From an uncultured Gammaproteobacteria bacterium (GTDB taxonomy: Bacteria > Patescibacteriota > Microgenomatia > UBA8517): a stretch of DNA of 64,000 nucleotides. Under the pieces are notes generated by a model. The model did not search any database. It was not told the DNA's origin and worked only from the letters and a program-made list of their open reading frames with translations. The stretch is from the NCBI GenBank assembly GCA_964617045.1, contig CAZTVZ010000003.1, positions 32,257-96,256 of the forward strand, read 5' to 3'. A program made the translations under genes and the position numbers. Positions 25,189-51,279 of this stretch are shown here, in pieces (position 1 is the stretch's first letter; every line of letters starts with the position of its first letter).

Positions 25189-25752
25189 ATGGCTGCCCAA
25201 AAAGGCTCAAAACTGATAAATCTTCTACCGCAAGAGGAATTTGCCAATTCCACAATTGGTCGTGTGTTTACGTGGGCAATGAGTACCTTCAGAATTATCG
25301 TTATTGGTATGGAGATGGTCGTCATGGTTGCTTTTCTTTCTCGTTTCTGGTTGGATGCCAGAAATGTTGATTTAAACGACATAATCAAACAAAGATCGGC
25401 TGTGATTGCCGCCCAATCCGATTTTGAAAAAGAATTTAGAGATCTTCAAAAAAGAGTTAAGGTTTTTTCCGGAATAACCGGTGTGGAAAAACTTCCTTCC
25501 GAACAAATTACAATTATTACTTCTTATATACCAAACGATGTCCGACTTGAGGCAATTAACCAGTCGGGTGAAAATTTTCAAATCAGAGGAAATTCTTTTA
25601 ACGAAATATCTATAAGCCAATTTATTGTTAACCTTGAAAAAAGCGGAAATTATGACAAGGTTCAGGTTTCAACACTCGATTCGGATCAAGAAGAGGGCGG
25701 ACTGTTTACATTTACTTTGAGTTTATCCCCCAAGAAAGGAGCATCTAAATAA
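25189..25752 (+). CDS. pilN: PilN-like type IV pilus assembly protein
   Basis: The conserved N-terminal INLLP motif (KLINLLPQEEF) is followed by a single TM and a periplasmic-type domain. Length is 187 aa. Confidence 0.6.
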   Translation: MAAQKGSKLINLLPQEEFANSTIGRVFTWAMSTFRIIVIGMEMVVMVAFLSRFWLDARNVDLNDIIKQRSAVIAAQSDFEKEFRDLQKRVKVFSGITGVEKLPSEQITIITSYIPNDVRLEAINQSGENFQIRGNSFNEISISQFIVNLEKSGNYDKVQVSTLDSDQEEGGLFTFTLSLSPKKGASK

Positions 25753-26406
25753 ATGGCACTCGGCTGGAGAAAAGATTACCTAAGATATCGTGAGCAATTT
25801 CTTAACGTTGTAAAACTTTACCAAAAAAGACAGGACTTAAGAATCTATCTTGAAGTAATTTTGTCTTTACTGACAATTATCTTTTTTGCTTTCTTTGCCT
25901 TAAGACCAACCATTCTGACAATATCTCAACTCTACAAAGACATTCAGGCAAAGGAGGAAGTTGTGCAAAAACTGGAAGAAAAAATAAACAATCTCGAATT
26001 GGCACAAGAATTGGTTGCCGAAAAACAAACAGTAATCGAAATTGCCCGACTGTCTGTTCCTGGCGAACCAACACCGGAAAGTTTTGCCAGACAAATTGAA
26101 GGACTATCACAAACAACAGGTATTACTCTATCGGGAATCTCGGTTGGAGAAGTAACAATACTCGGTGAAGCAAGAAAAACCGCTCAGGATAAAGATTTAA
26201 AACCTCTGCCCGAAGGCTCAATGGGAATGCCATTTACGATCAGTATATCGGGAGAATACGGAAATCTGTTTAATTTCCTCAGAAATTTGGAAAACCTGAG
26301 AAGGCCTGCTTCTATTGATAATATTTCCATTTCATCAACGATAAACGATGAGGGTATTGTAAAAATAACAATGATCGTATCGGGAAGGGTACCTTTTCTC
26401 AAATGA
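25753..26406 (+). CDS. pilO: PilO-like type IV pilus assembly protein
   Basis: Starts 1 nt after pilN. It has an N-terminal TM, a coiled-coil (QAKEEVVQKLEEKINNLELAQELVAEKQ), and a C-terminal ferredoxin-like region. Length is 217 aa. Confidence 0.5.
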   Translation: MALGWRKDYLRYREQFLNVVKLYQKRQDLRIYLEVILSLLTIIFFAFFALRPTILTISQLYKDIQAKEEVVQKLEEKINNLELAQELVAEKQTVIEIARLSVPGEPTPESFARQIEGLSQTTGITLSGISVGEVTILGEARKTAQDKDLKPLPEGSMGMPFTISISGEYGNLFNFLRNLENLRRPASIDNISISSTINDEGIVKITMIVSGRVPFLK

Positions 26407-26744
26407 AAAAATTTAAACCGCCAAGCTTTATCACAATATTAATTCTTACTGCAATTACCGTTGTCTTCTGGATATTTTTTGGTGTCGTAAGAATATTTAC
26501 AAAAGCCGATGAGGAAACTGTACCTGCAGCAATTCTTGCACCGCTATCCCCAACACTTGACAAGGATGTTCTGGATAAACTTCCTTCAAGGGTATATTTT
26601 GATGATAGTCAGATTTCAACAAATGTTGTTAGTTCACCCACACCGACGCCTTCAATCCAAATTCCCACTCCGACAGAAATTCTCGAAGCAACAGAGTCTG
26701 CAACACCAACGGCAACAGAAGGAGCAGTTATAGATGAAGAATAA
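26403..26744 (+). CDS. small bitopic membrane protein with acidic Thr/Pro-rich ectodomain (hypothetical)
   Basis: 113 aa. A TM (FITILILTAITVVFWIFFGVV) is followed by PTPTPSIQIPTPTE. It overlaps pilO by 4 nt and the next gene by 11 nt. Confidence 0.4.
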   Translation: MKKFKPPSFITILILTAITVVFWIFFGVVRIFTKADEETVPAAILAPLSPTLDKDVLDKLPSRVYFDDSQISTNVVSSPTPTPSIQIPTPTEILEATESATPTATEGAVIDEE

Positions 26745-31008: not shown

Positions 31009-33042
31009 ATGGATTATCTGAGCATTTTATATTGGTGGATATTTTTATTTTTACTGGGGCTTATAAACTACCCTTTTTCGTTCATTCTTCTGAGGAAAAA
31101 CTCCGATCGCGGTTACGGATTATCCAAAATTATATCTCTTCTTCTGATTAGCTACATCCTTCTTTTGGGTTCTTCGCTCAAGTTGTTTCCTTTTACGATA
31201 TATTCTTCCCTTTCCGCGTTGCTTCTTCTTGTTTTTGTTAACACACTAATCTTTCTAAAAAATAAAAGGGAAATTATTCGTGACACAAAACTAACTATTC
31301 GATTAATTATCTTTCAGGAAATATTATTTTCCTCCGCATTACTCTTTTGGTCTTTTATTAAAATGCACAACCCTGACATTCGAAGCTTGGAAAAATTTAT
31401 GGATTACGGGTTTATAAACTCGATCTTAAAAAGCCCTTGGCAACCTGCTCAGGACATGTGGTTTGCCGGAGGAAAAATAAATTATTATTATTTCGGACAT
31501 TTCTATACTGCAGTTGCCACAAGATTGTCTTTTCTGCCCAGCTCAATTACTTACAACCTCATGCTGTCCACAATTTTAGGGTTTTTAGTTAACGGAGCCT
31601 ATTCTCTGGTGCACACGATTTTTTCATCTCTCCCTAAAGGGATCAACAAAAAAGCGGTTTCTGCAGGGATAATTTCATTTCTGCTTGTATCTTTCGCGGG
31701 AAATTTCCATACGCCGATATATGCCTTTCAAAAAGGAATCGATAAATATTGGTATCCGGATGCGACAAGATTCATCGGTTATAATCCCGACACCAACGAC
31801 AAAACAATACATGAATTTCCCCTCTACTCTTTCGTCGTGTCTGATCTGCATGCCCACTTATTGGGAATTCCAATCGTAATTCTTTATTTGAGTTTCCTGT
31901 TCATGATTTTCGGCTCTTCCGAAAATATAACATTTCGAAAACGCATCCCGTTCTTGCTGTTCCCAGGATTTTTATTCGGGCTTATGTTTATGACCAACAC
32001 CTGGGATTTTGCCTCATATATGCTAATCACCGGAGTTTGCCTCGTTATGTCACGGATATCTCTATTTAAAGATATTGGCAATATTTCTCAAGCCGTCTAT
32101 GACATTTCTTTAAACATTATTATTCTTCTTGTTATTGGCTTGATTACTGCGCTTCCGTTTATCCTTAATTTCGAATCAATTGCGGAGGGTGTGCAATTTG
32201 TAACTTCACGCTCCCCGGTTTGGCAATTGTTAATCTTATGGGGACTTCCGATACTACTTCTTGTTTTCTTTTCGGCTTTTATTATCGCAAAAAAGAAAGC
32301 CGAAAAATCAGATCTCTTTATTTTGGGACTATTGGTATCCTCTATTCTTCTCATTATCATCCCTGAAATCATATACGTAAAAGACATTTATATTGCATCT
32401 CATTACAGGGCCAATACTATGTTTAAAATTACCTATCAAGCATTTGTAATAGGTTATCTTTCGAGTGGATATGTTGCATTAAGAATAATCACTGGAATAA
32501 AAAATATTCCGTTTCGTATATTGTCCACAACGGTTTTTACTTTGCTATTTTCTGCAATGCTGACGTATCCGTTTTTTGCAGTAAATTCATATTTCGACAA
32601 ACTGGAAAACAAAACTGGCTTAAATGGAGAAACTTGGATTAAAAACACCTATCCCTCAACATATCGTGCTATTGAATATTTAAGGAATACCGTTTCCGAA
32701 CAAAAAATAATTACTGAAGCATCTGGAAACAGCTATACGGACTACAACGTAATTTCCAGCTATACTGGCCTTCCAACAATACAAGGGTGGTTTGTCCACG
32801 AGTGGTTATGGAGAGGAAGTGCAGAATTGCCCTCAGAAAGAGTCTCTGATCTGGAGATTCTATACACATCGAAAAATATTAACGAAGTAAAAAAGATAAT
32901 AGAAAAATATAAAGTTAACTACTTAATATACGGTTTTTTTGAAAAAGAAAAATATCCCAACAACAACGAACTATTAATAGACAGTCTCGGAGAAATAGTA
33001 TTTACCGATGGTGATACTACTATTTATTCAGTTGATTATTAA
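31009..33042 (+). CDS. DUF2298 / 'YYY'-domain polytopic membrane protein (GT-C-type putative glycosyltransferase)
   Basis: 677 aa with more than 12 predicted TMs. The signature Tyr triplet GGKINYYYFGHFYTAV is present. A C-terminal soluble domain follows. Confidence 0.65.
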   Translation: MDYLSILYWWIFLFLLGLINYPFSFILLRKNSDRGYGLSKIISLLLISYILLLGSSLKLFPFTIYSSLSALLLLVFVNTLIFLKNKREIIRDTKLTIRLIIFQEILFSSALLFWSFIKMHNPDIRSLEKFMDYGFINSILKSPWQPAQDMWFAGGKINYYYFGHFYTAVATRLSFLPSSITYNLMLSTILGFLVNGAYSLVHTIFSSLPKGINKKAVSAGIISFLLVSFAGNFHTPIYAFQKGIDKYWYPDATRFIGYNPDTNDKTIHEFPLYSFVVSDLHAHLLGIPIVILYLSFLFMIFGSSENITFRKRIPFLLFPGFLFGLMFMTNTWDFASYMLITGVCLVMSRISLFKDIGNISQAVYDISLNIIILLVIGLITALPFILNFESIAEGVQFVTSRSPVWQLLILWGLPILLLVFFSAFIIAKKKAEKSDLFILGLLVSSILLIIIPEIIYVKDIYIASHYRANTMFKITYQAFVIGYLSSGYVALRIITGIKNIPFRILSTTVFTLLFSAMLTYPFFAVNSYFDKLENKTGLNGETWIKNTYPSTYRAIEYLRNTVSEQKIITEASGNSYTDYNVISSYTGLPTIQGWFVHEWLWRGSAELPSERVSDLEILYTSKNINEVKKIIEKYKVNYLIYGFFEKEKYPNNNELLIDSLGEIVFTDGDTTIYSVDY

Positions 33043-34045
33043 CCCACGATCTTAAATCTTCCCAAGATCCGGAAGCAGGTATAAAAACATATTGATGATC
33101 ATACTTAGAACTAATAGGAGGATTAAAAAGATATTCTTCCGGAATATTATGTTGTCTAATATCATTTCTTGCGTTAACAACAAGTTTTCCTAACACCCCC
33201 AGTGAACCAAATTTGAGATCTGTTTCAATATATTTTTCTGCCACCCTCCATGATTCATACAATTTCACCGGATTTAAAAGAATTTGGTAAGTAAGCATTT
33301 TGTCTTTGATCGAATTTATTACTTTTTGTTGTCTTGCCGAACGAGCCAAGTCAGTTCCTTCATCCCCCTGTGCGTTTCTTGATCTCACAAATTTCAGAGC
33401 AGTATCGCCATTCATTTTCTGGATTCCTTTTTCAAAAACAATCGTTTCGTATCTGCATTTCAATTCTTTGTCGCCGTCACAAAGATCATTCTCTTTACCC
33501 TTGATGGGATACTTCGGATCTGTAAATGCATTTTCCACATCAACATCTATTCCGCCGATCACATCAACTATTTCCGTAAATCCGTCGAAATCAATAACAA
33601 TCCCGTAGTTTATCTTTTCTTGTAACAATTCAGAGGCAATATCTTTTGCAAAGGATAATCCTGTTGTTTCATCTTTTTGCTTTCCCCAATAATAGGCACT
33701 GTTTATTTTCGCTCTAATGGATGGGATCCAAACATCCCTGGGAATAGAAATTGTATCAATCTTGGATTTTTCGGAAGAAATACTTACAAGCATTATGGAA
33801 TCGGTCAAGTCAGATCCATCGTGTCCTGCTCCTGATTTTCCGAGAACCAACAAGTTAACCCTTCCTTCCTGGTTTTCGATTTTTGTCAAATCGGTATTAA
33901 CATAATCCATAGCCAGGGAGAAAAACTTTCCAAAATCCATTTTTGCTAAGAAGAAGTAAAGAAACATAAAGAGTGATATGACAAATAACAAAAACAGCCC
34001 GATTCTTATAGCTTTTCGTGAAGGTATTTTAGATTCTTTTTCCAT
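33020..34045 (-). CDS. LytR-CpsA-Psr (LCP) family cell-wall glycopolymer ligase
   Basis: After an N-terminal TM comes the LCP core VNLLVLGKSGAGHDGSDLTDSIMLVSIS...IPRD. The C-terminal region is extended. It converges on the YYY gene and overlaps it. Confidence 0.85.
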   Translation of the reverse strand: MEKESKIPSRKAIRIGLFLLFVISLFMFLYFFLAKMDFGKFFSLAMDYVNTDLTKIENQEGRVNLLVLGKSGAGHDGSDLTDSIMLVSISSEKSKIDTISIPRDVWIPSIRAKINSAYYWGKQKDETTGLSFAKDIASELLQEKINYGIVIDFDGFTEIVDVIGGIDVDVENAFTDPKYPIKGKENDLCDGDKELKCRYETIVFEKGIQKMNGDTALKFVRSRNAQGDEGTDLARSARQQKVINSIKDKMLTYQILLNPVKLYESWRVAEKYIETDLKFGSLGVLGKLVVNARNDIRQHNIPEEYLFNPPISSKYDHQYVFIPASGSWEDLRSWVNNQLNK

Positions 34046-43062: not shown

Positions 43063-44553
43063 ATGAAAAATTTTATCGTTAAACATGACAGGTTTTTTCA
43101 AAGATTGCTGGAAATTCTTCCCGGCTTTTTTTCTTGGAATGTAATACTTTTCCCTTACTGGGGTATTTTCGTAATACCGGACGTTGTCGCCTACTTCGTT
43201 CTTCTCTATAACATTTACTGGTTTTATCAGTCGGTCCAAATAGCAGGATCGGCAATTATTTCCCATCTTAGGATTCAGGCTTCAATGAATTACGATTGGA
43301 TAGGAGATTTAAAAAATTTTCCAGATTACAAGAAGGTTCACCATGTAGTAATTATTCCAACCTACAAAGAGCCTCTGCACATCTTGCAAAGAACTCTTAA
43401 TTCACTTGCCGGACAGACACTGTCAACAAAACAGATTACTGCAGTTCTGGCAATGGAAAAGAAAGAACCGGAAGAGGACAGACTTGCAAAAGTAAAGGTT
43501 TTGAAAAAAGAGTTCGGTAAAGTCTTTGCAAACCTAATTATTACGGTACACGAATTACAGGTCGGAGAAGTTGTTGGTAAAGCATCAAACGAAAGATACG
43601 CTGCTATTGAAGTAAAAAAACAACTAGTCGACAAGGAGGGTATGAATATCGACTACATGACGGTTACATCCTGTGATGCAGACCACAAATACCATCCTCA
43701 ACATTTTGCAGTACTTACCTATCGATTCCTTGATAATCCAAACAGATATAAATTCTTCTGGCAACCGGCAGTCATGTTTTACAACAATATCTGGGAGCTT
43801 CCGGCGATAACAAGAGTTCCCAATACTTTTGGTTCTATATGGAACTTATCTCAACTTCCTCGAAAAGACAGATTGATAAATGCTCAGAACTATTCTTTGT
43901 CGTTCAAGCTTCTTGATAGAGTTGGATATTGGGATGCAAGCATTATCCCTGAAGACTGGAACATATTTTTCAAAGCTTTTTATAAAGCAGGAGGAGGAAT
44001 AGAAGTCGAACCGATTTATCTTCCCTTGCATGCAGACGCAGCTCAATCAACATCTTTCTGGAAAACAGTTAAGAATCAGTATGAACAATTTAAACGATGG
44101 GCTTGGGGCGTATCCGACGATCCCTGGATAATCAAAAATTATTTGTCCACACCCGAAATTCCATTTTGGGATAAAACAATGAGACTTCTTACAGCACTGT
44201 GGGCACATTTCTTGTGGCCTGTAAACTGGTTCATCATCACCTTGGGTATTACAATTCCCACCCTCCTTAATCCTGCATTTGGAAGAACAACATTGGGCTA
44301 TACGGTTCCCAAGTTGTCATCCTTTATCCTAACCGTAGCTTTAGCTTTCCTTGTTGTCACTCTGATAATCGACTATATCTACAAGCCGAAAAGACCGCAG
44401 GGATTCCCTTTGTGGAGAGCGATTCTTGTGCCTTTTGAATTTGTATTGATGCCCATCGCCGGATTTTTCTTTTCGGCTCTTCCCGGTCTTGATGCTCACA
44501 CAAGACTTATGCTTGGAAAATACATTGAATACAAAGTTACTGAAAAAGTATAA
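43063..44553 (+). CDS. processive family-2 glycosyltransferase (membrane-embedded, cellulose/hyaluronan-synthase-like)
   Basis: Shows VVIIPTYKEP, SCDADH (a DxD-like motif) and QYEQFKRWAWG (QxxRW). There are N-terminal TMs and a C-terminal TM bundle. Confidence 0.75.
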   Translation: MKNFIVKHDRFFQRLLEILPGFFSWNVILFPYWGIFVIPDVVAYFVLLYNIYWFYQSVQIAGSAIISHLRIQASMNYDWIGDLKNFPDYKKVHHVVIIPTYKEPLHILQRTLNSLAGQTLSTKQITAVLAMEKKEPEEDRLAKVKVLKKEFGKVFANLIITVHELQVGEVVGKASNERYAAIEVKKQLVDKEGMNIDYMTVTSCDADHKYHPQHFAVLTYRFLDNPNRYKFFWQPAVMFYNNIWELPAITRVPNTFGSIWNLSQLPRKDRLINAQNYSLSFKLLDRVGYWDASIIPEDWNIFFKAFYKAGGGIEVEPIYLPLHADAAQSTSFWKTVKNQYEQFKRWAWGVSDDPWIIKNYLSTPEIPFWDKTMRLLTALWAHFLWPVNWFIITLGITIPTLLNPAFGRTTLGYTVPKLSSFILTVALAFLVVTLIIDYIYKPKRPQGFPLWRAILVPFEFVLMPIAGFFFSALPGLDAHTRLMLGKYIEYKVTEKV

Positions 44554-44596
44554 TTTATATTTTCCTCACAACTAAGTTATACTAATTAAGAATCCC

Positions 44597-46099
44597 ATGA
44601 ATAAACTTCGGGAACACTTGAATTTAATAATTGGAAAAACACAAATACCAAAGTGGTTGGCCATACTGCTTGGAATAATAATTGTTCTTAGAATCCCCTC
44701 TCTTTTTGAACCTTTTTACTATGGTGACGAAACAATATATCTGACTTTGGGAAACGGAATAAAAAAAGGGCTAGTCCTCTATCAACAAATATATGACAAC
44801 AAACCTCCCCTTCTTTATCTGACTGCGGCAATCGCAGGGAATGTTTTTTGGTTTAAAGCAATCCTTCTTCTTTGGAATATGATTACGGTAACTATCTTCT
44901 GGCATTTATCTAAGTTATTCTTTTCGGGTAAAGAAAAAATTATAAAAATAGCAACAATAATTTTCGGCGTTCTAACATCCATACCTATGTTTGAAGGAAA
45001 TATTGCCAATGCCGAATTATTCATGATTGGTCCAATTATTTTAGCCATATTTCTTCTTTTTAAAGAAAAATCTTCCTGGATTAACAAATTAATTGCGGGT
45101 GTTCTTTTTGCAATTGCAGCACTTTATAAAATGCCCGCAGCATTTGATTTACCTGCAATCATTGTCTTTTGGCTTATCACGAACGGTTTTACAAAGGAAG
45201 GTATTAAAAAATCCTTAAAGGACACCTTACTACTGCTGATTGGGTTTGCTATTCCGCTGATCGGTTCCTTTATTTATTTCTTCTTCAAAGGTGCAGTTTT
45301 GGATTATTTGTTTGCTGCCTATTTGCAAAACTTCGGTTATTTATCCAGCTGGAGAGAGGGTTCACAAGGCGGATCACTTCTTAATAATCTTCCTCTTATT
45401 ATTAGAGGTTCAATTGTTATTGCTGGAATCTTAGTTTTGTATATTAAAAGAAAAATTTTATCCAAAGAATTTCTGTTTATTTGTATTTGGCTGCTATTCG
45501 GACTTTTTGCCGTTGCTCTTTCCGAAAGACCATATCCGCATTACTTAATTCAAGTTGTTCCGGAAATATCTCTCCTTTTGGGAATCCTTATTGCCGATAA
45601 AACAATAAAACAAAGTCTTGTTGTTATTCCCTTACTCTTAGCGTTTTCCGTACCGGTAATCTACAAGTTCTGGTATTATCCCTCAACTTCCTACTATGCC
45701 AAGTTTATTAAATTTTCTTTAGGAATAAAAAACAGAGCCGAATACTTTTCTTCATTTGGGAAATATGTTAATCATAATTACGAGCTAGCCGATTTTATTG
45801 GAAATGCCACAGCCCCTGACGAAAAGATATTTGTTTGGGGTCCAGAAAGTCCAAACATCTATTCTCTCTCCAGAAGACTTCCGCCATCGAAATACGTTGC
45901 CGATTATCACTTTTTCGATTATGCCGACATGAAGAAAGAAGCAGACATCATAATCAATGCAAAGCCTTCATTTATTATCGTTCTTTCCAACTCCAGACCC
46001 TATCCAGAACTTACTTCCCAAATAAAGAAACATTATTATCAAATATCCGACACTAACGGTTCGGAAATATGGAGAATAAGAAGAATACCTCTAAAATAA
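44597..46099 (+). CDS. GT-C family glycosyltransferase (PMT/ArnT-like, GT39/GT83-type)
   Basis: 500 aa and polytopic. The first-loop motif FEPFYYGDETIYL is a DE motif. A C-terminal soluble domain is present. Confidence 0.6.
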   Translation: MNKLREHLNLIIGKTQIPKWLAILLGIIIVLRIPSLFEPFYYGDETIYLTLGNGIKKGLVLYQQIYDNKPPLLYLTAAIAGNVFWFKAILLLWNMITVTIFWHLSKLFFSGKEKIIKIATIIFGVLTSIPMFEGNIANAELFMIGPIILAIFLLFKEKSSWINKLIAGVLFAIAALYKMPAAFDLPAIIVFWLITNGFTKEGIKKSLKDTLLLLIGFAIPLIGSFIYFFFKGAVLDYLFAAYLQNFGYLSSWREGSQGGSLLNNLPLIIRGSIVIAGILVLYIKRKILSKEFLFICIWLLFGLFAVALSERPYPHYLIQVVPEISLLLGILIADKTIKQSLVVIPLLLAFSVPVIYKFWYYPSTSYYAKFIKFSLGIKNRAEYFSSFGKYVNHNYELADFIGNATAPDEKIFVWGPESPNIYSLSRRLPPSKYVADYHFFDYADMKKEADIIINAKPSFIIVLSNSRPYPELTSQIKKHYYQISDTNGSEIWRIRRIPLK

Positions 46100-46136
46100 T
46101 TGTCAGTCGAACTCACTTAGAGTAAAATTACGCAAG

Positions 46137-46496
46137 ATGAAGTTTCCTTCTAAACAATTTATTGATACAAAAAAGCTACCCTTTTTGACTTACATCTATG
46201 CCGCATCGATTATTAATATTTTAATTATCGGAACTACTTTTCTCATCCAGAATTTACTTCCTCCAGAAATACCTCTCTATTACGGACTAGCCGAAGGGCA
46301 AGAACAAATAGCTAAATCCATATTTCTGTTTGTTCCCAATTCGATTTCTCTGTTGATATTAATAATAAATTCCGCAATAGCCTCTTATATTAAACAGGAT
46401 TATTATAAAAAAATACTAATTGTCGCGGGATTAATATCAACCTTTTTCGCATCAATCACAGTATTTAAAATAGTGTTTTTGGTCGGAAGTTTCTAA
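46137..46496 (+). CDS. small polytopic membrane protein (hypothetical; possible accessory subunit of the glycosylation cluster)
   Basis: 119 aa with 3-4 TMs. Confidence 0.35.
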   Translation: MKFPSKQFIDTKKLPFLTYIYAASIINILIIGTTFLIQNLLPPEIPLYYGLAEGQEQIAKSIFLFVPNSISLLILIINSAIASYIKQDYYKKILIVAGLISTFFASITVFKIVFLVGSF

Positions 46497-46498
46497 AC

Positions 46499-47575
46499 AT
46501 GGACAACTTTAAAATATTATCTTTCTGGCCGGGTATTGTTGGTGCTGCTATCTCTTTCGCACTTACCCCTATTGCAATAAAAATTGCGAACAAGTTCGGC
46601 TTGATTGACGATCCAAATAAAAACAAGCATGAAAAAGTGATCCATACTTATCCAATTCCAAGAGGAGGAGGAATGGCCATTTTTGCTTCAATTTTAATTG
46701 CTTCCATCATCTTCCTTCCCTTAGATAAACACATGCAGGGGATTCTTCTTGGAGCAACAATTATTGCAATCATGGGTTTTCTGGATGATAAATACAATTT
46801 GAACCCTTATCTGCGTTTGGGATTGGGAGCGTTGGCCGCATTAATGCCAATCGCTTCCGGAATCGGAATAGCTTTTCTTTCAAATCCATTAGGCGGAATA
46901 ATCGATCTTTCTCAACCCCAACTGACATTTAATCTATTGGGTGAAACAAGAAGCCTTTGGTTACTGTCAGATTTGTTTGCCTTACTCTGGATTGTATTTA
47001 TGATGAACATGCTCAACATGGGGGCCAAAGGTATAGATGGACAGCTGACTGGGGTTGTTGTTGTTGCAGCCGCAACAATTGCCGCTCTTTCCATGAAATT
47101 TTCGGCAGACATCACTCAATGGCCCGTAATAATTCTCGCTTCCATTATGTCGGGTGCATATTTGGGGTTTTTACCTTGGCACGTATACCCTCAAAAAATA
47201 ATGCCCAGTTATGGTGGTGCCACGCTTGCCGGGTATCTTCTGGCGGTTCTTTCTATTCTATCCACCACCAAAGTAGGCACTCTTATCATTGTCCTGGGGG
47301 TTCCCCTTGTGGACACGGGTTATGTAATAGTCAGGAGAATATTATCAGGCAAATCCCCTGTTTGGGGAGACAGAGGCCATTTGCATCATAAATTGTTGGA
47401 TATTGGTTGGAGCAAGCCTATGGTTGCAATATTTTATTGGACCATTACATTAATCCTTGGAGTGATTGCTTTATATTTGAATACCCCAAATAAGTTATAT
47501 ACAATTGTCGGAGTAGCAATATTTGTAGGAGGATTAATTTTGTGGCTAACTTACCATCCCAAATCATCAAAATAA
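46499..47575 (+). CDS. polyprenol-phosphate N-acetylhexosamine-1-phosphate transferase (GT4, WecA/TagO-like)
   Basis: Shows GLIDDPNKNKHEKVIHTYPIPRGGGMAI, the DDKYNL and NMxNxxDGxDGQ regions, and a C-terminal GHLHHKLL. Confidence 0.8.
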   Translation: MDNFKILSFWPGIVGAAISFALTPIAIKIANKFGLIDDPNKNKHEKVIHTYPIPRGGGMAIFASILIASIIFLPLDKHMQGILLGATIIAIMGFLDDKYNLNPYLRLGLGALAALMPIASGIGIAFLSNPLGGIIDLSQPQLTFNLLGETRSLWLLSDLFALLWIVFMMNMLNMGAKGIDGQLTGVVVVAAATIAALSMKFSADITQWPVIILASIMSGAYLGFLPWHVYPQKIMPSYGGATLAGYLLAVLSILSTTKVGTLIIVLGVPLVDTGYVIVRRILSGKSPVWGDRGHLHHKLLDIGWSKPMVAIFYWTITLILGVIALYLNTPNKLYTIVGVAIFVGGLILWLTYHPKSSK

Positions 47576-48477
47576 CAAGACCTCTTCACTGGATAAAAAA
47601 TTTGTCGCTATTTGCGGCAATTCTATTTACGGGTGAATTGTATAACCCGATTCTTTTTTGGAAAGTATTTTGGGCTTTTATAGCCTTCAACTTTGCAACA
47701 TCCGCAACATATGTTTTTAATGACATACTGGATGTAAAGGTTGATAGACTTCATCCGATTAAAAAGAACAGACCAATCGCTTCAGGAAAAATGTCTATTC
47801 CCGTTGCAATCGCACTATCTCTCGGATTATCTTTGGCTTCTCTTTATCTTGCTGTTAATTTAAATTCCTTATTCTTTTTTATGGTTCTTTCTTATCTTGC
47901 AATTCAAATCCTATACAGCTTGGGTCTTAAAAAAGTACCTATCGTAGATATTCTTATCATTGCTTTCGGCTTTATTATGAGAGTATATTCAGGAGCTTTC
48001 GTTATTGATGCCCATCTTTCCGTTTGGTTTTTGCTGTGTGTAATTTCCGTAGCTCTGTTTTTGGCTTCAGGAAAAAGAAGAGCTGAACTTAATATTATTC
48101 AAAAAACAACAGTTGTCACAAGAGAAAGTTTAACAAAATACGACACCGAGCTTCTGAATTCTTTCGTCACGATGTTTGGAAGTGCAGCATGGTTGTCCTG
48201 GTCTCTTTTTTCATTTTTTGAATCACCAACAGCATCAACTCCCCTTTGGCTGTTGCTTTCGGAAATTTCGAAAACAACAACAATAAATAAATTAATGATG
48301 ATTACTATTCCAATTGTTATTTTTGGAATAATGAGATATCAAAGCCTTATCTTTAGAGGAAAAAGCGAAGCACCCGAAAAAGTACTCCTTACGGACAAAT
48401 CTCTTGTTATTTCTGTTCTCCTATGGCTTGGTTTGGTTATCTTCGTTCTATATGGCGGCATTGCCGCAGATTTTTAA
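47542..48477 (+). CDS. UbiA-family prenyltransferase, decaprenyl-phosphate 5-phosphoribosyltransferase-like
   Basis: The N-terminus is RPLHWIKNLSLFAAI. FNDILDVKVDRLHPIKKNRPIASG is the NDxxDxxxD motif. It overlaps the GT4 gene by 34 nt. Confidence 0.75.
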   Translation: MANLPSQIIKITRPLHWIKNLSLFAAILFTGELYNPILFWKVFWAFIAFNFATSATYVFNDILDVKVDRLHPIKKNRPIASGKMSIPVAIALSLGLSLASLYLAVNLNSLFFFMVLSYLAIQILYSLGLKKVPIVDILIIAFGFIMRVYSGAFVIDAHLSVWFLLCVISVALFLASGKRRAELNIIQKTTVVTRESLTKYDTELLNSFVTMFGSAAWLSWSLFSFFESPTASTPLWLLLSEISKTTTINKLMMITIPIVIFGIMRYQSLIFRGKSEAPEKVLLTDKSLVISVLLWLGLVIFVLYGGIAADF

Positions 48478-49394
48478 TTCGTTTCCGAGGTAATCGAAGG
48501 GGTAGGAGAAATCAATACGTCTTCAATGATTCTACTATAAAGATTTGATACCCAACCTTCTTTCCCATCCATGTATTCAATTCTATACCAACCCGTTCCC
48601 GAATCTGTTTCCAAATATCGGAATCTTTCTCCAGGTTTTGCTTCTGCCAATAATTCTCCCGAAGCGGATGGCGTAGCCCTTATTCTCAGATATCCTGTTG
48701 GTGTTTCTTGTATCTCGACAACCGTAACTTTTACTTCCTCTGTAACCGTAGGTGTGGGAGTAGCAAGAACATCTCCGGTTGGAGCAAGTTTAATAACAGC
48801 GGTCAATTTATACCCCTCAATCAAGTTAATTTCCATTACTCTTTCCGTATATCCAGGAGAGAACACTTTCAGTTCATGCTTACCGGGTCCAAAAAGAGTA
48901 CTTTTGTGGGGGGAAAAACCTACCGACTTTCCGTCTACAAATACGGGCACGTTGTTGGGTCTTGAGATAACTGCTAGGCTTGTTTCTTTTCCCGGCGCTT
49001 TTTCAAATGAAATAATTGCTCCTTCAGAGGATTCTTCTGTTTCACCAAACTTGTATTCAATTATTGTTTGGATTTTCGAGCTCAGTCGAACCCTTGTTTC
49101 ATACGGAACAAGAAGTTTATCAGTCGTTTGTGGCACTAACTTAACAATCAAATCTCCACTTTTCAATTCAGCCTTATATGGTGTTTGCCCAACCATTTCA
49201 CCATTTATATATACAGTCGAAATAGGTTCGGAATTAACACTGATTCCGGCATTGGGTTTTCTGGCGGATGAACCCATTATATAAAGGCCGATTGAAGAAA
49301 GAATCAAAAAGGTGCCTATACCAATAAGGATGGGTTTAAGTTTATTCATCAGCAGGGGAAGTTTATCATGGCCATATTTACCTAGGCAAGGCAA
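48474..49394 (-). CDS. membrane-anchored PEGA-domain + SH3b-domain protein
   Basis: Has two PEGA-like units (VYINGEMVGQTPY, VFVDGKSVGFSP). The C-terminal domain GYLRIRATPSASGELLAEAKPGERFRYL...GWYRIEY is a bacterial SH3. The likely start is the Met at residue 16. Confidence 0.55.
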   Translation of the reverse strand: MPCLGKYGHDKLPLLMNKLKPILIGIGTFLILSSIGLYIMGSSARKPNAGISVNSEPISTVYINGEMVGQTPYKAELKSGDLIVKLVPQTTDKLLVPYETRVRLSSKIQTIIEYKFGETEESSEGAIISFEKAPGKETSLAVISRPNNVPVFVDGKSVGFSPHKSTLFGPGKHELKVFSPGYTERVMEINLIEGYKLTAVIKLAPTGDVLATPTPTVTEEVKVTVVEIQETPTGYLRIRATPSASGELLAEAKPGERFRYLETDSGTGWYRIEYMDGKEGWVSNLYSRIIEDVLISPTPSITSETN

Positions 49395-49446: not shown

Positions 49447-49518
49447 GGCCTGGTGGTGAAGTGGAAACACGGCTGTCTGCAAAACAGCTATGCGCGGGTT
49501 CGATTCCCGCCCAGGCCT
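49447..49518 (+). tRNA. tRNA-Cys (anticodon GCA)
   Basis: The sequence is GGCCTGGTGGTGAAGTGGAAACACGGCTGTCTGCAAAACAGCTATGCGCGGGTTCGATTCCCGCCCAGGCCT. The acceptor stem is a 7-bp GGCCTGG/CCAGGCC pair. The anticodon stem-loop is GCTGT-CTGCAAA-ACAGC and the T arm GCGGG-TTCGATT-CCCGC. CCA is not encoded. Confidence 0.85.
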
Positions 49519-50389
49519 CACAGATTTAACCTTTTTTTAAGCTCCAATCCGTATTCTTTGCTTTTCAAGGCAAATTGCATTATTGCTTCCAGGTATCCAA
49601 TTTTACTCCCCGTGTCATAATACTTGGCGTTGGATAATTCCAAAGCATAGCACTTCCCTTTGCCTGCCATTAGCATTCTGTCAATTGCATCCAGATAGCA
49701 AGGCTCTCTTCCTTCAACCTCTTTTATGGCCTTGGCAAAAAAGGGTTTAGCTTCCGGTGTAATCAAAAATCCAGACACTGTTGCGAGCTCACTCGGAGCC
49801 TTGCCCGGACCGGGTTTCTCAATAACGCTCTCGACATCCATTACATGCCCTGACACCATCTTGCCCTTAGCATATCCGTACTTGAGAGTATCTTCTTCTT
49901 TGCTGGTTCTGATTGCACCTAGAACGACGCCTCTATATTTGTCGTAAGCCTTGATTAATTGCTTAGCCCTGGAAGGTGAGGCTACAACGAAATCATCTCC
50001 CCAGAAGACCAAAAAAGGCTCGTTTCCAATATACTTGAGGCTGTTGTGGATAGGGACAGCATTACCGCTTTTACCTTTCTGTTTTATAAACCGAAAAGAG
50101 GCCAATTTCTCAATCTTTTTAAGGCTGTCCGCAATATCGGATTTCCCAGAATCTCTCAGAAGCTTGTCAAGCCTGGGGTTAGGCTTAAAATAGTTCTCCA
50201 GCACTTTTTTGTCTCCCTTTGTAACAATTATTATTTCTTCTATTCCTGCGTCAACCAATTCCTCGACAACAATCTGAATAATAGGCTTGTCTAAAACCGG
50301 GAGCATTTCTTTGGGTATTGTTTTTGTGATAGGAAGAAATCTGGTGCCAAAACCGGCTGCAGGGATAACTGCTTTTTTGACTTTCATTA
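49518..50389 (-). CDS. galU: UTP--glucose-1-phosphate uridylyltransferase (GalU)
   Basis: MKVKKAVIPAAGFGTRFLPITKTIPKEMLPVLDKPIIQ is the canonical GalU N-terminus. The six-frame ORF extends to 50630, but the conserved start is 50389, 9 nt after a TAAAAT -10 element. Confidence 0.9.
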
Positions 50390-50394
50390 GGCAC

Positions 50395-50423
50395 ATTTTA
50401 GCCTGAAAAGAGTCGTTTGCCAA
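50395..50423 (-). promoter_or_regulatory. sigma70-like promoter for galU (TTGGCA-17-TAAAAT), leaderless arrangement
   Basis: On the minus strand the -35 is at 50418-50423 and the -10 at 50395-50400. The ATG lies 6-9 nt downstream. Confidence 0.45.
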
Positions 50424-50435
50424 GACCCTCCAAAC

Positions 50436-50465
50436 TTGACTTTTCGGGTTTTTGTAGGGTATAAT
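50436..50465 (+). promoter_or_regulatory. sigma70-like promoter (TTGACT-18-TATAAT), divergent from the galU promoter
   Basis: The -35 is at 50436-50441 and the -10 at 50460-50465. Confidence 0.45.
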
Positions 50466-50471
50466 CGGCCA

Positions 50472-50612
50472 CTCGCTAAAAAGCGAGTTTTTTGTGCTTA
50501 GCCTTAAACTAGGCTCAAAAGTATAGGCCTTGCCCAAGCTTAAAACTTGGGCATTGTTTTTCTTTGGATTTCCATTGAAAAGCCCCCCTTGCGGGCTGCC
50601 GAGGCAAGGGAT
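50472..50612 (+). ncRNA. structured leader RNA upstream of the M23 peptidase gene (four successive hairpins, two with U-tracts)
   Basis: Four stem-loops are visible by eye. The first is CTCGCT-AAAA-AGCGAG followed by TTTTTTG (50472-50494). The second is AGCCT-TAAACT-AGGCT (about 50499-50514). The third is GCCCAAG-CTTAAAA-CTTGGGC followed by ATTGTTTTT (about 50532-50561). The fourth is CCTTGC-GGGCTGCCGAG-GCAAGG (50587-50609), directly before the ATG at 50614. Confidence 0.4.
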
Positions 50613-50613
50613 T

Positions 50614-51279
50614 ATGACTAAATTCAACATAAATCTGCCTAAATATCGCCTTCAAATCAATTTGATCAAGAGGCGAGCTTCCAATGAAGACAAACCTTTA
50701 CTTCCCGATCTTGATGAGATCAAAAATACGAAATCCGGAAGCAAGGTTTCTCGTTATTTCAGGCACATCTTTGAGCACAAAAACATTAAAAAAGTGCTTG
50801 GGGCAAACTTGGCTGTAGCCTTAATTGCCACATCTTTTGTACCTGGGAAAATTGACGTCGAGGCAAGTTCCGAAGCCTTTGTTATTGCCGAATCAAACGG
50901 ACCTTTCACCACAGAAAAGGTTGTACAGTATCCTGTGGAAAAAATCTCTATTACCCAAGGATTTAAAGTATTCCATCCCGGAATCGATCTTGACGGAATA
51001 ACCGGAGATCCGATCAAACCCATCAAAAAGGGTGTTGTTGAGGCTATAAGCAGATCTAAATATGCCTACGGAAACGCCATTATTATTAATCACGGAGGAA
51101 ATGTTACATCTTTATATGCTCATTTGAGCAAAATTTTGGTTGCCGAAGGTGACGAGGTCAATACCAACACAATTATTGGTGAAATGGGTGCCACTGGTAG
51201 ATCCTTTGGAGACCATTTGCACTTGGAAATCAGAGATAACGGCATTCCTGTTAATCCACTGTTGATTTTGCCTCGTTAA
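50614..51279 (+). CDS. M23 family metallopeptidase (LytM-domain peptidoglycan endopeptidase), membrane-anchored
   Basis: Shows HPGIDL, GNAIIINHGGNVTSLYAHL and GDHLHLEI (the HxxxD/HxH zinc motifs), with a TM at residues 60-77. The six-frame ORF starts at 50530, but that region is taken up by leader hairpins. Confidence 0.8.
   Translation: MTKFNINLPKYRLQINLIKRRASNEDKPLLPDLDEIKNTKSGSKVSRYFRHIFEHKNIKKVLGANLAVALIATSFVPGKIDVEASSEAFVIAESNGPFTTEKVVQYPVEKISITQGFKVFHPGIDLDGITGDPIKPIKKGVVEAISRSKYAYGNAIIINHGGNVTSLYAHLSKILVAEGDEVNTNTIIGEMGATGRSFGDHLHLEIRDNGIPVNPLLILPR

Follow-up and report, generated by a model that had tools for sequence, protein, structure and literature searches.

A putative lipid-linked pentofuranose locus of the cell envelope conserved across the class Microgenomatia

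Positions 43063-48477 of a 64-kb stretch of contig CAZTVZ010000003.1 (assembly GCA_964617045.1), called the window here in its full length, carry five genes on the plus strand. They encode a membrane glycosyltransferase of family 2 (GT2), a glycosyltransferase of the C fold (GT-C), a small protein with three transmembrane (TM) helices, a divergent member of the polyprenyl-phosphate N-acetylhexosamine-1-phosphate transferase (PNPT) family, and a UbiA-superfamily enzyme of the type that links ribose-5-phosphate to polyprenyl phosphate (PPPRS). From sequence comparisons and structure models we propose, with a probability of roughly 0.55, that this is an envelope-glycan locus found throughout the Microgenomatia, a lineage-specific variant of the systems in which a PPPRS and a GT-C together attach pentofuranose. 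Going by the names on near-identical homologues, the host lineage is Candidatus Woesebacteria (Microgenomates, candidate phyla radiation (CPR)).

An earlier sequence-only reading of this DNA had described five co-directional genes with a 34-nt overlap between the last two, and we recovered the same layout. The motifs it quoted are present as well: QFKRW at residue 342 of the GT2, FYYGDE at residue 40 of the GT-C and NDILDVKVD at residue 60 of the UbiA-family protein. Hundreds of conserved homologues exist for each of the five proteins, so the five genes are real. The locus does not stand for a new category of system, and automatic annotation already catches part of it; some orthologues of the UbiA-family protein in Woesebacteria are named "decaprenyl-phosphate phosphoribosyltransferase" by NCBI.

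Identification of the UbiA-family protein

The last of the five genes (47542-48477, plus strand, GTG start) encodes a Rv3806c-like protein of 311 aa in the UbiA superfamily (PF01040, E = 2.5e-24). With 214 bits it exceeds the cutoff (207 bits) of the NCBIfam model NF008978 for decaprenyl-phosphate phosphoribosyltransferase. All four top models in NCBIfam are of the PPPRS type (214, 200, 166 and 158 bits), the sister models NF008977 (200 bits, cutoff 234) and NF008976 (165.6 bits, cutoff 474) staying under their cutoffs, while the models of quinone, haem, chlorophyll and archaeal-lipid prenyltransferases reach at most 65 bits. The sole strong match in the PDB is Rv3806c of Mycobacterium tuberculosis (8j8j, E = 1.5e-37), and the alignment is full-length, with 34.5% identity over 281 positions (residues 2-299 of the query and 11-295 of the chain). 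The next UbiA structure, the 4-hydroxybenzoate octaprenyltransferase 4od4, follows at E = 0.007.

The cryo-EM study of Rv3806c names the residues that bind Mg2+, the pyrophosphate, ribose and 5-phosphate of phosphoribosyl pyrophosphate (PRPP), and the lipid phosphate (PMC10994848). In the HMMER alignment R22, K28, Y70, N73, D77 and K87 of Rv3806c correspond to R13, K19, Y57, N60, D64 and K74 of the window protein, and R90, Q135, Y138, K143 and Y157 to R77, Q122, Y125, K130 and F144. Ten of the 11 ligand residues are identical. The eleventh, Y157, is replaced by Phe, which some mycobacteria also have at this position (PMC10994848), and we count all 11 as conserved. Seven are invariant among 40 diverse homologues (31-68% identity); the family as a whole comprises 1,608 clusters at 50% identity (E <= 1e-30).

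It is highly improbable that the protein is an ordinary prenyltransferase of quinone, haem O, chlorophyll or archaeal-type lipid synthesis: it does belong to Pfam UbiA and several JGI records label homologues as "4-hydroxybenzoate polyprenyltransferase", but the models of those enzymes stay far below the 214 bits of the PPPRS type, the solved 4-hydroxybenzoate enzyme is matched only marginally, and the phosphoribose-binding residues are all kept although these sites are not conserved across the wider UbiA superfamily (PMC10994848). The protein falls with decaprenylphosphoryl-5-phosphoribose (DPPR) synthase and away from the quinone, haem and chlorophyll prenyltransferases, as had been suggested from its N-terminus and motif. 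Judged by these matches, it probably has PPPRS activity, that is, the transfer of ribose-5-phosphate onto a lipid carrier.

The two glycosyltransferases

The GT-C gene (44597-46099, plus strand, 500 aa) is difficult to place by sequence. Its similarity to PMT_2 (E = 1.5e-4) amounts to 22.5 bits and lies under the gathering score of 26.1, there is no sequence match in the PDB at E <= 1, and as far as sequence can tell the protein belongs to no described family. The AlphaFold2 model built with 39 homologues is confident (pLDDT, predicted local distance difference test, 89.6) and consists of about 11-12 TM helices followed by a C-terminal alpha/beta domain. Its fold is closest to PIG-M and ALG3 rather than to ArnT, and the similarity to PIG-M, ALG3 and ALG6 is at least as high as that to Pmt4.

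In GT-C enzymes the catalytic acids sit in the loop right after the first TM helix (PMC11127046). The loop directly after TM1 of the window protein has E38, P39, Y42, G43, D44 and E45 invariant among homologues. Both the identity proposed earlier, a GT-C with an FYYGDE loop, and the integrity of its catalytic residues are therefore borne out, by the modelled fold and by the invariant GDE. We consider it very likely from the model that this 500-aa protein uses a polyprenyl-phosphate-linked sugar on the outer side of the membrane. That this sugar is the product of the neighbouring PPPRS is a plausible extension, to which we would give slightly less than even odds.

The first gene (43063-44553, plus strand, 496 aa) encodes a membrane GT2 of the synthase type, similar to hyaluronan synthase and BcsA (Glyco_trans_2_3, E = 2.8e-10), with a DAD motif at residue 205. 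D205, D207, E297, D298, Q342, R345 and W346 are invariant. Conservation is extraordinary: the 120 best homologue clusters listed are 74-80% identical to the query. The protein has no significant sequence match to any solved synthase in the PDB. In common with hyaluronan synthase, BcsA/CesA and chitin synthase it has a pair of TM helices at the N-terminus and more at the C-terminus, interface helices, and a GT-A domain bearing DxD, ED and QxxRW; it differs from them in that the position of the first nucleotide-binding Asp appears to be Glu. The synthase-like architecture of the membrane GT2 with QxxRW, as read from the sequence alone, thus stands. The data support a membrane enzyme like hyaluronan or cellulose synthase, with processivity as a prediction. 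It might also supply the polymer that serves as acceptor, which we regard as a tentative idea.

The PNPT-like protein and the small TM protein

The gene directly upstream of the PPPRS gene (46499-47575, plus strand) encodes a divergent PNPT membrane protein of the MraY/WecA family with 358 aa. The PPPRS gene overlaps it by the 34 nt mentioned above and is preceded by an AGGAGG Shine-Dalgarno sequence 8-9 nt before the GTG start. Membership in Glycos_transf_4 is clear (PF00953, E = 1.6e-20; 74.1 bits, threshold 27). In contrast, the protein scores 96.6 bits against the WecA model TIGR02380 (cutoff 326) and 55 bits against the MraY model TIGR00445 (cutoff 192).

An alignment of 79 distinct orthologues showed which parts of the active site are kept. 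D96-D97 of the DD motif and D291 are invariant, N170 is present in 77 and N173 in 78 of the 79, D272 in at least 90%, and D180 forms part of a (V/I)DGQ motif. The WecA-like SPVWGDRGHLHH loop is also kept. The position of the Mg2+-binding Asp, however, is occupied by Tyr in 62 and by Phe in 17 of the 79, within the motif PQKIMP(G/S)(Y/F). Tyr238 of the window protein aligns with D265 of Aquifex aeolicus MraY (in FMGDVGS), which coordinates Mg2+ (PMC4790310), and with the Asp of the WecA motif VFMGD. Two alignments agree on this loss, a profile alignment to four MraY structures including 4j72 and a MAFFT alignment to E. coli K-12 WecA, in which VFMGD stands opposite IMPSY. In addition, Lys177 is found at the first Asp of the WecA motif NMVDGIDG. 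Both of these aspartates are needed for the activity of WecA.

Compared with WecA, TagO and MraY, the protein has the same PF00953 domain, about 10-11 TM helices, the DD motif, NxxNxxxGxDG and an SPxxxDRxH(L/I)HH loop like that of E. coli WecA. It is only 24% identical to E. coli WecA and under every curated cutoff, it has Tyr/Phe for the Mg2+-binding Asp and Lys for the first Asp of NMVDGIDG, and it carries a subfamily-specific SADITQW motif. The earlier assignment as a WecA/TagO-like GlcNAc-1-phosphate transferase is thus right about the family and the DD motif, and fails on the WecA score and the Mg2+-binding Asp. The protein is 42-74% identical across the class and hence clearly under selection. 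Whether it primes a lipid-PP-linked N-acetylhexosamine (HexNAc) acceptor for attachment to the wall by a LytR-CpsA-Psr (LCP) ligase seems doubtful to us.

Just ahead of it lies the gene of the small TM protein (46137-46496, plus strand, 119 aa), which ends 2 nt before the PNPT-like gene. The protein has three predicted TM helices and no Pfam or NCBIfam match. Its homologues occur as two sequence variants and share only a loop motif after TM1, LPPxxP(L/W)xYxL(P/A)xG(E/Q)xQ(L/I). A possible likeness to DUF1648 was considered, and Pfam did not detect it. A flippase of the GtrA/SMR type and a PAP2 phosphatase were considered for this protein and rejected, as it matches neither family, has only three TM helices and contains no His.

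Conservation of the locus in Microgenomatia

For the comparison of gene context we used three contigs with close homologues and 80 species-level genomes, with our own calling of open reading frames (ORFs) and phmmer and hidden Markov model (HMM) searches. Related loci, numbered with L below, were found with a seven-sequence UbiA alignment as query. They come from Woesebacteria (58-74% identity) and from Shapiro-, Beckwith-, Davies-, Gottesman- and Collierbacteria and other Microgenomates (43-50%). Many of these records are titled "uncultured Gammaproteobacteria/Pseudomonadales bacterium" (L006, L010, L012, L016-L018, L021-L025 and others). By gene order and protein identity (43-70%) they belong with Microgenomatia, so the titles look like placeholder or wrong taxonomy.

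The PNPT-like gene stands directly upstream of the PPPRS gene in all 82 Microgenomatia loci that have DNA upstream of the latter, usually with an overlap estimated at 13-64 nt. The small TM gene is found just ahead of this pair in nearly all loci. The PNPT-like and small TM proteins are obligatory partners of the PPPRS in Microgenomatia; candidate roles are the priming of a lipid-PP-linked acceptor or the handling of the carrier lipid or product. In nearly all related loci a gene for a surface protein with PEGA and SH3 domains follows the PPPRS gene on the opposite strand.

The glycosyltransferase genes vary more. The GT2 gene is usually upstream, and the GT-C of the window type is present in most Woese-, Shapiro- and Beckwithbacteria. 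About 35 loci have a second, PMT_2/EpsG-like GT-C (type B) with a W(G/R)DE loop that passes the PMT_2 cutoff. The slot between the GT2 and small TM genes is variable and holds mostly glycan genes (one or two GT-Cs, a UDP-xylose synthase, another GT2), with small unrelated ORFs in a few loci. In about 15 Woesebacteria loci (L007, L018, L019, L024, L027-L030, L034, L038, L039, L047, L048 and L079 among them), a gene for UDP-glucuronate decarboxylase (UDP-xylose synthase; human UXS1, E = 1e-101) lies between the GT2 and GT-C genes on the minus strand; the window does not have it. It hints that the locus also uses xylose in some species. This short-chain dehydrogenase/reductase (SDR) gene had been considered as an ORF13-like lipid-pentose epimerase, which its identity as a decarboxylase rules out.

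Two loci depart from this pattern. In L057 the PNPT-like/PPPRS pair stands in a wholly different context and has neither GT2 nor GT-C. L066 is rearranged and lacks the GT2, with the type-B GT-C, the small TM gene, the PNPT-like/PPPRS pair and the PEGA gene still together. Some relatives also have LAGLIDADG-type homing-endonuclease-like ORFs, with faint or weak Pfam matches, inserted at differing points of the otherwise syntenic region (L002:1793-2908, L002:12144-12887 and L003:12143-12808).

Distant PPPRS homologues and known systems

We also inspected 80 metagenome loci (583 kb) whose PPPRS is more distant and shares 36-40% identity with that of the window. All 80 are recovered by the UbiA profile; none gives a match to the HMM profiles of the other four proteins (GT2, window-type GT-C, small TM protein and PNPT-like protein). 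The absence of PNPT-like genes there indicates that the coupling of PPPRS and PNPT is specific to the Microgenomatia clade. Among the neighbours of the distant PPPRS genes are GT-Cs of the PMT/PMT_2 type, EamA/SMR-like proteins with four TM helices and, in L139, a DprE1-like FAD oxidase (FAD_binding_4 and ALO). DUF362 proteins recur directly downstream (L087:6761-7816, L116:8988-10064 and L148:8849-9976, with 361-aa ORFs in L130 and L133). We know of no explanation for this association.

The GT-C, flippase-like and DprE1-like neighbours agree with the published three-component logic of a PPPRS, a flippase (MATE or SMR-like) and a GT-C (GT136), with optional epimerases (PMC11127046). In that scheme the phosphatase is a fused HAD domain in Citrobacter and a separate enzyme in Mycobacterium and Pseudomonas, and epimerases (SDR or DprE1/E2) set whether ribo-, xylo- or arabinofuranose is added (PMC11127046). 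The earlier idea that the GT-C consumes a lipid-pentose donor gains from the adjacency of PPPRS and GT-C genes in these unrelated lineages, and loses in so far as it implied an obligate local partner.

The system of Citrobacter youngae O1/O2 (ORF15-ORF14-ORF12; Kelly et al., PNAS 2024, PMC11127046) shares with the window a UbiA-type PPPRS with NDxxDxxxD and a nearby GT-C with an acidic catalytic residue beside TM1; it makes polyprenyl-phosphate-ribofuranose from PRPP, with epimerases as optional accessories. The window PPPRS differs in lacking the fused HAD phosphoribose-phosphatase domain and in its translational coupling with two genes, the divergent PNPT-like one and the novel one for the 3-TM protein, and there is no MATE flippase in the cluster. 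The fold of the window GT-C is nearest PIG-M/ALG3, whereas GT136 is ArnT-like, a distinction drawn from its description. The Citrobacter genes lie in an O-antigen cluster and those of the window among CPR housekeeping genes.

The mycobacterial pathway of decaprenyl-phosphoryl ribose and arabinose (Rv3806c, Rv3807c, DprE1/DprE2, Rv3789, AftA/B/D, EmbA/B/C) has in common with the window a full-length PPPRS homologue with the ligand residues kept and GT-Cs as consumers of its products, a role that is predicted for the window. In both, this envelope logic also includes a GT2, an LCP ligase and a gene of the PNPT family. Neither a PAP2 phosphatase of the Rv3807c type nor DprE1/DprE2 nor a GtrA-like Rv3789 is present in the 64-kb window. 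Literature searches gave nothing relevant that links the PPPRS enzyme with CPR, Patescibacteria, Microgenomates or Woesebacteria, and no CPR member appears in PMC11127046.

Surroundings of the locus

The GT2 gene begins directly behind the stop codon of metG without any spacer. At the other end, the gene of a membrane-anchored PEGA and SH3_3 surface protein (48474-49394, minus strand, 306 aa; PEGA E = 1.8e-15, SH3_3 E = 2.3e-12) is convergent with the PPPRS gene and overlaps it by 4 nt. At its extreme end the PPPRS gene carries a GC-rich hairpin (GCGGCATTGCCGC) with a T-run behind it (48455-48477, plus strand), which is consistent with the end of a transcription unit inside this convergent overlap. 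The scan for promoters and terminators gave no other clear operon boundary; the 37 promoter-like sites found, against 28.9 +/- 6.6 expected, are uninformative.

A tRNA-Cys gene follows at 49447-49519 on the plus strand and overlaps by 2 nt the stop codon of a galU-like gene on the opposite strand (49518-50630, minus, 370-aa ORF call), which scores 226 bits against the GalU cutoff of 326.8. The ORF call probably over-extends the N-terminus, with the nucleotidyltransferase domain beginning at about residue 84. The statement that galU follows immediately after the cluster does not hold, as the PEGA/SH3 gene intervenes before the tRNA and the galU-like gene is on the other strand. Of about 80 related loci just two, L023 and L044, have galU next to the cluster as the window does, which rules it out as a member of the cluster.

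The window also contains housekeeping genes and envelope genes of the Gram-positive type, namely MurJ, FemAB, a sortase, an LCP-family ligase of glycopolymers to peptidoglycan and a DUF2298/YYY membrane protein. The LCP gene (33020-34045, minus strand; PF03816 E = 1.9e-31, TIGR00350 94.3 bits with a cutoff of 62.3) lies 9 kb upstream of the cluster. Its presence shows attachment of a lipid-linked glycopolymer to the wall in this organism; a tie to the five genes is our inference. The DUF2298/Chlor_Arch_YYY gene (31009-33042, plus strand, 677 aa; TIGR03662, 477 bits) converges on the LCP gene with a 23-nt overlap. Its product is possibly another GT-C-like enzyme, and together the two genes may form a second envelope-glycan module. 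About 20 kb upstream of the cluster, a PilN-like gene with adjoining small ORFs (25189-26744, plus strand) suggests a type IV pilus assembly operon and a possible target of glycosylation.

Discussion

The pathway that we favour would have five steps. The PPPRS would move ribose-5-phosphate from PRPP to polyprenyl phosphate at the cytoplasmic face of the membrane, and a phosphatase, none of which is encoded in the window, would take off the 5-phosphate. The lipid-linked ribofuranose, or an epimer formed by an enzyme encoded elsewhere, would then be flipped, a step for which the locus itself offers no candidate other than the small 3-TM protein. GT-C enzymes, be it that of the window, the second PMT_2-like one of relatives or others in the genome, would add the pentofuranose to an acceptor outside the cytoplasm. 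This acceptor would most likely be a wall-associated polysaccharide made by the neighbouring GT2, or else a surface protein.

Several observations count against a pathway of this kind. Among about 45 ORFs of the window scanned with Pfam there is neither a phosphatase (HAD or PAP2) nor a flippase (MATE, GtrA or EamA) nor an epimerase (DprE1/DprE2 or SDR), and a PRPP synthetase was not seen either; the lack of a phosphatase and of DprE1/E2 had already been remarked on in the sequence-only reading. As the PNPT-like protein is without the Mg2+-binding Asp, its activity is uncertain and a priming step of the WecA type is not assured. The GT-C is absent from the cluster in loci of the Collier- and Daviesbacteria type (L055, L060, L061, L065, L067-L069, L072, L074 and L075), and L057 and L066 have no GT2. 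The GT2 model has a moderate pLDDT of 70, with low confidence in its TM part. Finally, the whole stretch RmuC-TrpR-metG ... PEGA-M23-GroEL is syntenic across the class, so that the adjacency of GT2 and GT-C with the PPPRS, which may in part go back to inherited gene order, is by itself weak evidence of a single pathway.

It is thus conceivable that there is no single pathway and that the genes are neighbours by class-wide gene order. Only the small TM, PNPT-like and PPPRS proteins would then cooperate, the GT2 would make a separate exopolysaccharide and the GT-C would use another lipid-linked sugar. In favour of this view, metG, TrpR, RmuC and GroEL are as syntenic as the glycan genes, metG and GT2 abut, the GT-C and GT2 are absent from the loci named above, and the promoter and terminator scan does not delimit an operon. 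On the other hand, the type-B GT-C of L066 stays with the small TM, PNPT-like, PPPRS and PEGA genes in spite of the rearrangement, mostly glycan genes fill the slot that separates the GT2 from the small TM gene, and PPPRS genes elsewhere are typically found beside GT-Cs. Better arguments than adjacency come from the rearranged loci and from what the variable slot contains, and we hold a mere neighbourhood to be unlikely.

A narrower form of the proposed envelope-glycan pathway would be a wall polymer like arabinogalactan, in which the PNPT-like protein primes polyprenyl-PP-HexNAc, the GT2 builds the backbone on this primer or next to it, the GT-C adds pentofuranose from the PPPRS product on the outer side of the membrane and the LCP enzyme ligates the product to peptidoglycan. 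The gene set does parallel the arabinogalactan logic of M. tuberculosis, with WecA, a GT2 polymerase, a small TM protein, UbiA, GT-Cs and Lcp1 (PMC11127046). The LCP ligase, MurJ, FemAB and sortase genes in the window and the DD motif, GxDG and SPxxxDRxH(L/I)HH loop of the PNPT-like protein fit as well. But the latter has Tyr or Phe at the Mg2+-binding Asp in all 79 orthologues and Lys at the first Asp of NMVDGIDG, its WecA score remains far under the cutoff, membrane-embedded synthase-type GT2s as a rule do without a lipid-PP primer, and the LCP gene lies 9 kb off and outside the conserved block. We find this form rather unlikely.

Protein O-glycosylation, with one or more GT-Cs moving pentofuranose to type IV pilin, sortase substrates or the PEGA/SH3 protein, appears less probable still. 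There is a precedent in TfpW, which puts D-arabinofuranose on the pilin of Pseudomonas aeruginosa (PMC11127046). The GT-C has its weak PMT_2 similarity, the second GT-C of relatives passes the PMT_2 cutoff, the PEGA/SH3 gene is a constant convergent neighbour that stays even in L066, and PilN and sortase genes are present in the window. Yet these acceptors are candidates only, the fold of the GT-C is as near or nearer to PIG-M, ALG3 and ALG6, which act on glycan or lipid acceptors, than to Pmt4, and the adjoining synthase-like GT2 suggests a polysaccharide.

Within the proposed pentofuranosylation locus, three features are worth following up: the class-wide conservation in CPR, the invariant module of small TM, PNPT-like and PPPRS genes, and the lost Mg2+-binding Asp. 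As a speculation, the trio may form a membrane machine specific to Microgenomatia, in which the Asp-less PNPT-like protein would have given up the synthesis of a lipid-PP-sugar and would process, hand over or flip polyprenyl-phosphate-ribose(-5-phosphate) in place of the phosphatase or flippase. The machine would so feed an essential wall polymer of these episymbionts that contains ribofuranose or even ribose-phosphate. A PNPT-like protein without this Asp that is always coupled to a PPPRS makes a clean case for what a degenerate MraY/WecA fold can do.

CPR bacteria, or Patescibacteria, make up a large share of bacterial diversity and live attached to host cells, and their surface chemistry is almost uncharted. 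If the proposed pathway were not true, the locus would be an ordinary set of neighbouring glycosyltransferase genes. If it is true, the whole class Microgenomatia would have the lipid-linked pentofuranose chemistry long held typical of mycobacteria. The locus would then offer a testable handle on the Microgenomatia envelope, an assay of PPPRS with PRPP and farnesyl-phosphate being available already, and the conserved surface glycan could mediate attachment to the host.

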